Below, piece after piece: positions 11,303 through 47,836 of a stretch of DNA of 64,000 bases (positions within the stretch are counted from its first letter, which is position 1; each line of letters starts with the position of its first letter). Where the stretch lies: contig OZ024740.1 in assembly GCA_964016885.1 (NCBI GenBank), forward strand, positions 59,520,001 through 59,584,000. Reading direction: 5' to 3'. The DNA comes from Eledone cirrhosa (Eukaryota). The position numbers and the translations under genes were made by a program. The notes under the pieces are model-generated. The model worked only from the letters and a program-made list of their open reading frames with translations. It did no database searches and was not told the DNA's origin.

Positions 11303-11351
11303 TTGCTCCGATGATTCCAGACATTTATCTGGAAGAAACAATTGTCAGCAA
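11303..11351 (+). ncRNA. Minimal type I hammerhead ribozyme, CCGAUGA core variant (Penelope pseudo-LTR type)
   Basis: ttgct-CCGATGA-ttccaga(cattta)tctggaa-GAAA-caattg-TC^-agcaa: stem I 5 bp, stem II 7 bp, palindromic stem III ACAATTGT, GUC site at 11344-11346. Confidence 0.78.
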
Positions 11352-12039
11352 TTAAATGTATTAAACTAAAATTTGATTGTTTTATATTTTGTATCTCGGC
11401 TCTGTAATACATTTGATAATTTACATTGAGCCTTTTCTCTTACTGGTAACTGGCTAGTTCTTAGTACTACCCTTTCATATTTATACCTGAACAAATTTTG
11501 TATTTTTGTTAATCGCTTGTTAAATGCATAGACCCATCTCAATCATTACCTTCTTGCTAGCTATTTTCAAACCTTAATTCCTAACGTATTTTCAAACCCC
11601 AATCCCTAATTCTAGCGTATCTTCAAAACAAAAAAGCAAAATCCTTTCCTTCTTCCTTCTTCGAAGGCACGGGGCGGTCAAACGCCTAACACCCACAGCC
11701 ATCATGTGGCCCCCTACCCTCGCACTCTCTCTCTCTCTCTCTCTCTCTCTCTCTCTCTCTCTCCCTATAAATATATGATAGGAATTCACTTCGCCAAATT
11801 TCATTTCTTTGCCTGCTGTCCAAACGAAACTCATGTAAACGTAATGTACAGACTTCATCTCTCTCTCTCTCTCTCCTAGCGTATTTTCAAAACAATCCAC
11901 ATTTCGTATTTCAAGTCCAAATAGCCATTCTATCGCTAAAACAAACTACATTTTCTGTTTCTATTAAGTGCTAAATACGTTTAGGTTTTTGGACGTATTT
12001 AACTGAACAAATTTTGTATTTTTGTTAATCGCTTGTTAA

Positions 12040-15000
12040 ATGCATAGACCCATCTCAATCATTACCTTCTTGCTAGCTACCCAACACCCCTCCCTCCCAC
12101 CCCCACACACCACCATTGCTATTACGTGGACCAATCATAAAACAGAGCCCCCACGTATCACCAGTATTATTACGCGGACCAATCAGAAACCAGAGGCCTA
12201 TACTATCGCTTGCCTGGTTGCCTTTCGATATACGATATATGATGGATGGATGGACTGCGGAATCCTGGAGAGTGGAGGTGAGAGAGAAAAATCTGGACGC
12301 TCAGCGACAATGCCAAAGATAAAGACAAATTCACCCCTTGGACGAGAATGCGAGCACTCCTCATTGTTTCGACCGCGGACGGCTAACATAACCCCATCGC
12401 CCCCCGCCCCTCACCGCCCCCAACCCCCAAACGCAATCCAAAACTTCAGAGTTGGTACCATAAATGTAGGCACCCTAAAGGGTCGCGCTAACGAGGTTGT
12501 AGAAATGCTTGAACGTAAGGAGGTCGATGTTTGTTGTATTCAAGAGACCAGGTGGAGGGGTGGGTCTGCTAGGTTCATTGAGGGTAAAAAACGTTGTTAT
12601 AAGCTTTTCTGGGTGGGAAACGACGATGGGCTGGGTGGAGTAGGAATCATGGTAGCAGAAAAGTGGGCAGATAAGATAATAGACGTAAATAGAGTGAACG
12701 ACAGAATAATTAAAATACGACTTGTCCTCAATAGAACTACGGTGACAGTAATATCTGCGTACGCACCCCAATCCGGACTGCCCGGCACTATAAAAGACAG
12801 ATTCTATGAGACACTGATGCTAACTACCTCCCAAATATCCGACAGTGACTATATAATTATCGCAGGCGACCTAAATGGTCACGTTGGACAACATTGTGAC
12901 GGCTACGACGAAATCCATGGAGGCTATGGGTTTGGTACTAGAAATGAGGAAGGCTCCAGAATCCTGGAATTCTGTGATGCAAATAACCTAACTATCTGTA
13001 ACACTAACTTCAAAAAACGTGACAATCACCTGATCACCTATAGATCCGGGGAACACACAAGCCAGGTAGATTATATCCTTACCAGAAGACGTGACAGAGT
13101 GTCTGTTGTTAACACTAAATCCCTCCCCCATGAAGAATGCACCTCCCAACATAGACTGATAATTAGCGACCTCATAGTCAGGACGAGACGTACTCGACAA
13201 CAGAAGAGGACTATCCTCAGGAGGAAAATATGGAAGCTAAAGGACCCCACAGCCAGGAATAAATTTCAAAGCATATTACTTGATGCTTTCGACAGTAAGG
13301 AAGAACATTTAGAGTCGGACAATATAGAGGGAGAGTGGGAATTTCTGAAAGCAAACCTGCTGTTGGCGACAGACGAGGTCTGTGGCTGGAGCAGGCCTGT
13401 AGGCAGGAGGAGAGTAACATGGTGGTGGAACAGTAAGGTGGAGGGGTCAATTAAGGCCAAAAAGCAGGCTTGGAAAGTATGGCGGGATGGGGGAAGTAGA
13501 GAGGACTATCAAGTGGCCAGGAGGGAAGCTAGGAGACAAGTGTACTTAGCAAGAAGGGAAGCTGAGGAAAGAAAGTTCAAGCATGTTCTACAACGCGATG
13601 ACCAAAAACGTGAGGTGTTCAGGATTGCTAGGCAATGCGTCAAGGAAAACCGTGATATTGTCGGGGAGAAGTGTGTACTAAACGACGATGGCACACTTGC
13701 CATCACCGACGCTGATAAGAAGGTAGCTTGGAAGTGTCACTATGAAAGGCTTCTAAATGAGGAGAATAATTGGGAGAAAGGCAGTCTCCCCCATATCGAC
13801 CCAATAGAGGGACCAGCAGTGTTAGTCGAGGGGAGTATAATAAGTAAGGCAATCAAGGATATGAAGACTGGTAAGGCTGCTGGGCCTTCGGAAATAGTTG
13901 CTGAGATGCTGAAGGCATCTGGCACGGTGGGACACACCATGGTCACCCGCATAGTTAACCAAGTCGTACAAAACGGGGTTGTTCCGAAGGACTGGCATAG
14001 CAGCATCATCGTTAACTGTTATAAGGGTAAAGGAGACGCTCTAGATAGGAGTAACTATAGAGGCATTAAATTAATCGACCAGGTCATGAAGGTCACGGAA
14101 AGAGTAATAGCGCAACTAATCAGAGAGAGAATTGACCTAGATGAAATGCAGTTCGGGTTTGTGTCAGGCAAAAGTACCACAGACGCTCTTTTCATAGTAC
14201 GACAACTACAAGAGAAGTACCTAGCTAAAGGTAAACCCCTCTACTTAGCTTTTGTCGACTTGGAGAAAGCCTTCGACAGAGTCCCCAGCTCCATTATCTG
14301 GTGGGCTCTTAGAAAACTAGGCGTTGACGAATGGCTTGTGAGGGCTATACAAGCCATGTATAAAGAAACAGTCAGCAAGGTTAGAATTAACAACGAATAT
14401 AGTGAAGAGTTTAGCGTAAAAGTCGGCGTCCATCAGGGCTCTGTTCTCAGTCCACTACTATTTATTATTGCCCTTCAGGCCATAACAGAGGAGTTCAAGA
14501 CAGGCTGCCCATGGGAACTCCTATACGCAGACGACCTGACACTCATAGCGGAATCAATGGCCGAGCTAGAGAAGAAATTCCAAACATGGAAGCACGGCCT
14601 AGAGTCAAAAGGACTTAAAATTAACCTGGCTAAGACCAAAGTACTAGTTTGTAGGAAAGAAAACAAGGCGGCGGTCCCTTCTGGGAAATGGTCGTGCTCG
14701 GTGTGTAGGAAAGGCGTAGGTAGAAACTCCATTTTATGTCCTAAATGCAAAGTATGGGTGCATAAAAGATGTAGTGGGATCACAGGTAGGCTAACTAAGA
14801 ACATAGATTTTACATGTGGCCGGTGCTCTGGTGCAATAAGTAGCAGCAAGTGCCCACAAAATACTAGCTCTTTCAATTGCGCAGAGGGTTCTATAGAAAT
14901 AGTGGACAGCTTCCGTTACCTGGGCGATAAAATCAGCAGTGGGGGAGGGTGCTCTGAAAGTACTGTAGCTAGAGTCAGAACTGGTTGGAAAAAGTTCAGA

Positions 15001-46849: not shown

Positions 46850-47470
46850 TTGGTTATTGATGCCGTTAATTAAATTTTTGAAATCTTTTAGTTGGAATAA
46901 GACAATCATCAAAGTAGTGTTTTCAATTCTCTGATAAATATTTGTGGAAGTTCAATCCGTATTTTGATTTGGAGTGTTCATATATCTGAACTTCCAAGTA
47001 TGCCTTGACTAAGTTAGCATAAGATGGAGCGACTTTTGTACCCATCGCAGTCCCTAATATGTGCTTGTAAGTACTGCCATCGAAATAAAAAAAGTTGTTC
47101 TGTAAAATAAATTTTAATCCCTCGATGATGAAGCTTTTTTCTATTCTGTCAGGTATCTCATTGGGATACTTCTCTAGCCAGAATCCTATTGCTTCTAGTC
47201 CGTATTGATGTGGGATCATTGTGTAGAGATTCACTACATTGAAAGTGTCATTGTTGACATCTTTGAAAAGGTGGTTTATGAGGTCCAGATCGTCTCTTAC
47301 AAGGCTTGGTATGTGTTTGAGAATTGGTTTTAGTTGTATATCTATAAAGTTGCTTAGTCTGTGTGTTTCACATTGTGGGCCCAATGAGATACCTGACAGA
47401 ATAGAAAAAAACTTCATCACCGAGAGATTAAAATTTATTTTACAGAACAAGCTTTTTGATTTTGATTGGC
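46850..47470 (-). mobile_element. Penelope-like element RT fragment with a 5' inversion
   Basis: LSNFIDIQLKP..VRDDLD..FNVVNLYTMIPH..FILQNNFFYF..GTAMGTKVAPSYANL..YFDD; 47380-47470 is an inverted copy of 47075-47165. Confidence 0.9.
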
Positions 47471-47787
47471 ATGACAAAAGCAAATGCCCAGTCCACAATG
47501 TAAAGTAGTTGTGTAGGTGTGATAACAAAAAGCACCCAGTCCACACTGTAAAGTGGTCATGTAGGTATCACGACAAAAAGCACCCAGTCCTCGCTGTAAA
47601 GTGGTCATATTGGTGACATGGCAAAAAGCACATACTGTAAATGTGGTTGGTGTTAGGAAGGACATTCAGCTGTAGAAACCAAGCCAAATCAATTCTGAGT
47701 GAGTGAATCATGGTTCTGCACCCTGGTCCCTCACAAAGGGGAAGATGGACATTAAACAATGATCAAAGTTCAGTTTAAATCATTTAT

Positions 47788-47836
47788 TTGCTTACAATTG
47801 TTTCCTCCAAACCGAAGTTTGGATTCTTCGGAGCAA
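47788..47836 (-). ncRNA. Minimal type I hammerhead, CCGAAGA core, C(UUCG)G-capped stem II
   Basis: Minus strand ttgct-CCGAAGA-a-tccaaac(TTCG)gtttgga-g-GAAA-caattg-TA^-agcaa. Confidence 0.72.

Follow-up and report, generated by a model that had tools for sequence, protein, structure and literature searches.

We report that hammerhead ribozyme motifs whose core reads CCGANGA, with cytosine in place of the canonical uracil at position 4 (C4 rather than U4), are typical of entire retrotransposon families in Eledone cirrhosa. Four such motifs lie in a stretch of 64,000 nucleotides (assembly GCA_964016885.1, contig OZ024740.1, positions 59,520,001 to 59,584,000 of the forward strand), called the window here and numbered from its first base. 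They belong to three families, A, B and C, in which C4 is the family state and not sporadic decay; a further family, X, has adenine at the same position (A4). On the evidence of their proteins and repeats the carriers are Hydra-clade Penelope-like elements (PLEs), three families in two lineages. Position 4 looks to be under relaxed constraint in these families, and the motifs are most likely attenuated, dimer- and protein-assisted ribozymes on RNA that is reverse-transcribed uncut. That C4 and A4 are fixed in retrotransposon families which have been successful and in part remain intact broadens the natural hammerhead core.

The four motifs described in the first-pass annotation of the window are present and fit a type I hammerhead, with three helices around the core and an open-ended stem I. 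Motif 1 (11303–11351, plus strand) is of family B and consists of a 5-bp stem I, a CCGAUGA core at 11308–11314, a 7-bp stem II, GAAA, a palindromic stem III and a GUC triplet, with a predicted cut after 11346. It sits in a family B fragment of pseudo-long terminal repeat (pLTR) or untranslated region (UTR) at 11163–11485 (plus strand), about 90% identical to other genomic copies and homologous to the family A pLTR, with no open reading frame (ORF) attached at the locus. Motif 2 (16634–16742, minus strand), of family C, has a CCGAUGA core, a U·U mismatch followed by an 8-bp stem II, a 64-nt loop, ACAAUUGU as stem III and GUU, and a predicted cut after 16638. Its inverted twin, motif 3 (17643–17739, plus strand; predicted cut after 17735), differs by a loop II 12 nt shorter (52 vs 64 nt) and a single stem III substitution. 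Both lie in one family C insertion (16574–17799, no strand assigned), a 488-bp inverted repeat with arms at 16574–17061 and 17343–17799 that are 90.8% identical and have their 3′ ends outward, the usual layout of inverted Penelope-like copies (cf. the Figure 2 legend of Craig et al., 2021; PMC8557442). As motifs 2 and 3 point away from each other, they cannot share one sense transcript. Motif 4 (47788–47836, minus strand) is of family A, with a 5-bp stem I, a CCGAAGA core, an A·G mismatch and 7-bp stem II, a UUCG loop, ACAAUUGU as stem III and GUA, and a predicted cut after 47793. The 5′-truncated 3′ UTR/pLTR that contains it (47756–49166, minus strand) ends some 35–40 nt beyond the predicted cut and is 75–86% identical to the ORF-bearing copies at loci L039 and L042. 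For motifs 1 to 4 in order, C3 falls at 11308 (+), 16738 (−), 17647 (+) and 47831 (−), and the predicted cleavage bases are C11346, U16638, U17735 and A47793. Stem III is exactly ACAAUUGU in motifs 1, 2 and 4 and ACAGUUGU in motif 3, while stem II opens with A·G in motif 4, U·U in motifs 2 and 3 and U–A in motif 1; G10.1–C11.1 occurs in none.

With a stricter descriptor, the window yielded four C4 motifs and none with U4, A4 or G4 anywhere in its 64 kb; 40 dinucleotide shuffles yielded a mean of 0.0 C4 motifs (maximum 0). The first descriptor scan gave the same four, together with a sole and poor U4 match at 59929, and none of the 84 Rfam matches down to E = 10 was to a hammerhead family. Only UTR/pLTR pieces of the motif-bearing families are found in the window, with no ORF of theirs inside it. 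The core change had been described as recurring in three sequence contexts, and three families are indeed represented; but since motifs 2 and 3 form one inverted repeat and the sequences around motifs 1 and 4 share homology (78% over 86 nt), these are two lineages, A/B and C. The family C pLTR has no similarity to the A/B surroundings above short words.

Searches of the 3.0-Gb genome establish how position 4 behaves across these families; wherever matches are described as listed, they are the first 100 along the assembly and not random draws. The pattern CCGANGA-N12-30-GAAACAATTGT has 6,177 exact matches, against 5 for a reversed control pattern. Its CTGA version has 1,752, of which just 16 of the 100 listed were of A/B type when counted by eye, most of the others listed belonging to a separate short-stem family, D. 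A core-blind pattern anchored on stem I (6,052 matches) had 96 C4 and 4 T4 copies among the 100 listed, and another, anchored on the flanks of family A (3,297 matches), had C4 in 98 of the 100 listed. Family C has C4 in 32 of 35 rows, 2 of which are duplicates, and family B has 21 C, 8 T and 1 A (n = 30). The T4 copies of family B are most simply put down to CpG decay, because the tree shows them dispersed and loop II holds a control CpG that is decaying equally (14 CG vs 11 TG). The core-blind samples are thus mostly C4; the families do not read CUGANGA, and so the observation stands that C4 is not decay. For internal comparison, the ATATRTAT stem III families gave 77,263 U4 matches vs 610 C4 matches, with a background of about 160, which places C4 at 0.8% or below.

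Beside these families, canonical-core PLE-type hammerhead motifs with the ATATRTAT stem III number at least 77,000 in the genome. Other palindromic stem III families carry ACGCGT, ACTAGT, ATGCAT, AGTACT, ATGCGCAT or ACTAATTAGT, and some motifs stand in retrozyme-like tandem repeats of 300–600 bp (L112, L120). Family D has U4, a 2-bp stem II and the ACAATTGT palindrome, and is often found in head-to-head inverted pairs that join at or near C3 (L036/L037; C1:17640175-17640234).

The further proposal that cytosine itself was selected is not supported. A protein search led to family X, which is young, with many intact 713-amino-acid ORFs at 95–98% identity, and whose hammerhead reads CAGAAGA with a monomer-type stem III; a core-blind pattern for it has 11,976 matches, all 100 of those listed being A4. 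Close subfamilies of the long-loop ACAATTGT families read either CTGAGGA or CCGAGGA/CCGAMGA, with stem I covarying. Among 22 protein-anchored hammerheads of the family C group, counted after two non-hammerhead rows were excluded, there are 13 C4, 5 T4, 2 G4 and 2 damaged cores, and G10.1–C11.1 is present in two of the T4 rows, which make up a subfamily. An A4 family and sister subfamilies with U4 or C4 fit relaxed constraint better than selection on cytosine. An unlikely alternative is that C4 was positively selected or compensated, whether by the ACAAUUGU helix of the dimer or by contact with a protein, and is as active as U4 or better tuned. The CpG formed by C4 and G5 readily reverts to U4 (8/30 in family B), yet C4 was retained as A/B and C radiated; it is concentrated in ACAAUUGU families, at less than 0.8% in the ATATRTAT families, and all 12 non-U4 representatives considered below have U2.1–A1.1, which can all be read as signs of selection. 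U4 families with the same palindrome exist, however, sister subfamilies differ at position 4, family X indicates that another base works too, and the tree test does not reject the hypothesis that C4 arose just once in A and C (p-AU 0.36).

Some individual copies show further variation at or around the core. Family X has a 3-bp stem II (locus L111:4757-6895, minus strand; copies L082–L119), and its copy L097 has C4 and, after a deletion, only 4 nt of palindrome left in stem III. The G4 core (CGGA) is found in two family C copies, L162 (+) and L163, either as a sporadic change or as a small subfamily.

The rest of the fold was compared in 12 hand-picked non-U4 representatives, some of them related. 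Positions 3, 5, 6, 8 and 9 and GAAA are constant, N7 is A, U or G, and H17 is A, U or C and never G. Six positions of the core C3 U4 G5 A6 N7 G8 A9 therefore fit, U4 being replaced by C, or by A in family X, and G12 A13 A14, A15.1–U16.1 and a non-G H17 are present in 4/4 window motifs and 12/12 representatives. Part of this invariance follows from the choice of sequences, as core patterns had been used to find several of them. Stem I pairs 2–4 are paired in 35/36 cells and stem II pairs 2–7 in 67/72, with two to five pair types at each position; as in the window, the stems covary. The 10.1–11.1 position is mismatched in 10/12 representatives and so departs from the R10.1–Y11.1 pair of hammerheads. 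These stems also bear on the very improbable possibility that the motifs are functionless baggage, in which a master element gained C4 by chance and was amplified, the remainder having yet to decay. Amplification of retrotransposons does spread any master-copy mutation, and Naiad PLEs prosper without canonical hammerheads (Craig et al., 2021), but between A/B and C, whose pLTRs are not otherwise detectably similar, stems I and II have been rewritten with pairing kept, and the remainder of the core has stayed the same. The covariation largely refutes this explanation.

Two details of the stems may be added. U2.1–A1.1 closes stem I in all 12 non-U4 representatives and the pair varies in U4 families; either shared ancestry or compensation may account for it in the non-U4 lineages. 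In family A, the first two paired bases of the 5′ strand of stem II are non-majority in 25% and 16% of copies (n = 61) and their 3′ partners are invariant, although the grouping rule biases the 3′ side.

Computed energies agree with the view of the palindromic stem III as dimer-type. It is predicted to form only as a dimer helix: within a monomer it is unfavourable by 0.8–1.3 kcal/mol, and the 8-mer duplex scores −6.4 kcal/mol. Homodimeric double hammerheads reach −28.8 to −30 kcal/mol for A, B and one intact C copy, and the window's own family C copies, with stem I shortened to 4 bp, −11.8 to −14.6 kcal/mol. The first-pass annotation had suggested that the shared palindrome could allow heterodimers between families. 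This is borne out in the computed pairing of motif 1 with motif 4, which has 8 + 8 bp of stem I and −34.4 kcal/mol, but it does not extend to A/B with C, where merely 1–2 bp of stem I form (about −11 kcal/mol); since a double hammerhead swaps stem I strands too, only the families of motifs 1 and 4 fit.

The origin of the motifs in Penelope-like pLTRs, already proposed from the window, is upheld by genomic copies and by motifs linked to ORFs. Loci L039 and L040 contain tandem motif–ORF–motif units of family A, each of about 4.2 kb, which exceeds the size of Hydra elements, generally under 3 kb, although that is a tendency only (Craig et al., 2021). The family A ORF encodes RWR, DKT, the reverse transcriptase (RT) core, a CxCX5C linker and a C-terminal endonuclease (EN) with CxxC and CxH. 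Families A, C and X combine the RT motif YRDD with a C-terminal IIY/IVY..YIG region, as in a single ORF of RT and a GIY-YIG-type endonuclease, and their endonuclease regions have the CxCX5C linker and CxxC and CxH flanking conserved E and N. These are Hydra-clade hallmarks as defined in section 11 of Craig et al. (2021), which also include RWK and DKT in place of DKG, with which RWR and DKT in family A and RWR and NKT in family X agree; a Pfam scan of five ORF pieces gave nothing relevant. The motifs of family C lie 0.5–0.8 kb after an ORF related to that of family A. The endonucleases of A and C are 36% identical and no closer to each other than to those of U4 families (32–41%), and the EN and RT trees lack a resolved backbone, A and C together not being rejected (p-AU 0.36, 19 rows). 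Family B is placed by the homology of its pLTR to that of family A, no ORF being firmly linked to it among 14 upstream stretches, and the ORF link of a further family, E, comes from a single copy. The clade label Nematis, considered at first, was dropped since the proteins match Hydra as described by Craig et al. (2021), and Naiad was rejected as the endonuclease is C-terminal here.

All 30 copies examined run past the predicted cut site into a common tail, and 27 of the 30 reach a simple repeat (a TA/TC run) 39–46 nt after it, as expected of (TA)n insertion; tandem and inverted pairs, the pLTR and inverted-copy layouts of such elements, are also seen. Because copies extend beyond the cut site, the RNA that was reverse-transcribed was uncut at its 3′ hammerhead. 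A near-perfect hairpin repeat of about 125 bp occurs in (TA)n beside PLE ends (L039:2350-2480; also L054, L060, L130 and L157).

We lean towards the view that pLTR hammerheads with C4 retain slow self-cleavage, with double hammerheads as the predicted active form and assistance from the protein of the element. Two motifs of the same family, in tandem pLTRs or on two RNAs, would be joined by the 8-nt palindrome and exchange their stem I strands, and occasional cleavage at the upstream pLTR would trim read-through transcripts roughly 275 nt before the ORF. Position 4 would drift between U, C and A under weak selection on rate, and the catalytic bases would stay fixed, because fast cleavage is unneeded and would remove the RT start region. 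Several published observations are compatible with this scheme. A PLE hammerhead has been found to cleave only with the PLE protein and to be dispensable for insertion in vitro, with no ends at the cut site in RNA-seq (Frangieh et al., 2024; PMC11167929). A natural U4C change in a viroid is weaker in vitro and viable, U10.1–U11.1 is a naturally tolerated mismatch, and U4 contacts the A6–N7 phosphate (Perreault et al., 2011; PMC3088659). Other points tell against slow, assisted cleavage. Two weakening features are stacked here, a base other than U4 and the lack of G10.1–C11.1; minimum-free-energy folds of isolated monomers are not hammerheads; canonical-core PLE hammerheads also cleave poorly as dimers (Cervera and de la Peña, 2014; PMC4209133); and the U4 families are more abundant (77,263 matches), so that attenuation is not required. 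Furthermore, flanking sequence or protein served as the anchor for just four of the families represented, A, B, C and X, and stem II of family F is irregular.

It is also conceivable, though in our judgement doubtful, that the motif no longer cleaves and that its fold is kept as a signal by which the RT-EN protein is bound or positioned near the RT start. A location about 43 nt from the insertion end suits this, as does the compatibility of three different position-4 bases with high copy number, but a binding role need not preserve the NUH rule, and G8, G12, C3–G8, A15.1–U16.1 and the non-G H17 are kept in 12/12 lineages with proteins down to 36% identical. Sister subfamilies that differ at position 4 offer a natural experiment on whether PLE hammerheads serve to cleave or to provide a fold for the protein.

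Much of the architecture is known. As in the Hydra hammerheads of Craig et al. (2021), the motifs are of type I, lie near the pLTR 3′ end with an N·N mismatch at the base of stem II, have an 8–10-nt (quasi)palindromic stem III and the NUH triplet, and accompany (TA)n insertion and the same protein clade; neither the stem II mismatch nor the palindrome of stem III is new for Hydra elements, and 10.1–11.1 is mismatched in most of the published rows (File S2). All 26 Hydra rows of that file read ctga, however, whereas here whole families read CCGA or CAGA. The unit of family A is also longer than the published elements (about 4.2 kb vs under 3 kb), the 8-nt palindromic stem III is loopless, and loop II is 50–90 nt in some families. 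The minimal dimeric hammerheads of Cervera and de la Peña (2014) likewise lie in pLTRs, with a short stem I, a long stem II, a palindromic stem III and predicted activity as dimers, but the 56 representatives in their Figure S3 have U4 throughout, the sole core variant being U3–A8, and G10.1–C11.1, absent here, is their consensus. The viroid hammerhead cited in Perreault et al. (2011) has the same natural core substitution, with activity that is reduced in vitro and sufficient in vivo; it is a rare variant with tertiary contacts, in contrast to fixation in thousands of retrotransposon copies. PAc, the anole Poseidon element of Frangieh et al. (2024), similarly has its hammerhead in the pLTR, ahead of the RT start and the tail, and copies that end beyond the cut site, but it belongs to another PLE clade and its ORF begins inside the hammerhead, not about 275 nt downstream as here.

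In metagenomes, a first scan returned no relatives and another gave 396 confirmed stretches, the best 80 of which yielded 77 Hydra-like loci. A motif was found at 55 of the 77, with 52 CUGA cores, 2 with U3–A8 and 1 CCGA (U4 in 54/55), although these loci are not independent because many may share a host. The CCGA case (L240:2928) reads CCGAAGA, has good stems and is separate from the ORF-linked CUGA motif of its contig. Position-4 variation was not encountered in the passages covered of the PAc paper (Frangieh et al., 2024), and our literature searches turned up no PLE hammerheads described as varying at this position; the study of small PLE hammerhead dimers by Luense et al. (RNA Biol) may already mention such variants. 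As far as these sources go, we found no published account of the fixed C4 and A4 cores identified here from sequence. Both the hammerhead consensus and the descriptors consulted (cuganga) take U4 as invariant, so C4 and A4 motifs are missed. A broader reading, which we offer tentatively as a possibility, is that the core in these elements is C-H-G-A-N-G-A, that U4, C4 and A4 would all be active with protein assistance, and that position 4 would set the rate and so keep RNA uncut for reverse transcription. Tens of thousands of motifs might then have been missed by CUGANGA descriptors, and some PLE families described as hammerhead-less may carry them.

The window also contains other mobile-element sequences. 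An intact 1,146-amino-acid endonuclease-RT ORF at 12040–15480 (+), with fragments at 981–2756, 6894–8371 and 59856–62806, is presumably an RTE-like long interspersed element. Another non-LTR family is represented by a 954-amino-acid RT ORF at 29871–32735 (+), which we take to be L1/Tx1-like. Directly downstream of motif 4 is a degraded RT fragment of 214 amino acids (46923–47567, minus strand) from a different Penelope-like type, assumed by us to be Neptune-like; a search of the window with Hydra proteins gave no match, and the fragment is not tied to motif 4. At 9087–9926 (−), a 279-amino-acid C-terminal fragment with a zinc finger and a restriction-like endonuclease motif would, we presume, come from a site-specific non-LTR element. 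Minisatellite-like tandem repeats occupy 27978–28457 and 59397–59849, with units of 48 bp and about 159 bp as read from translations. Weak tRNA-like Rfam matches at 25460–25523 (−) and 18161–18229 (−), of 31 and 27 bits, are possibly the heads of short interspersed elements.

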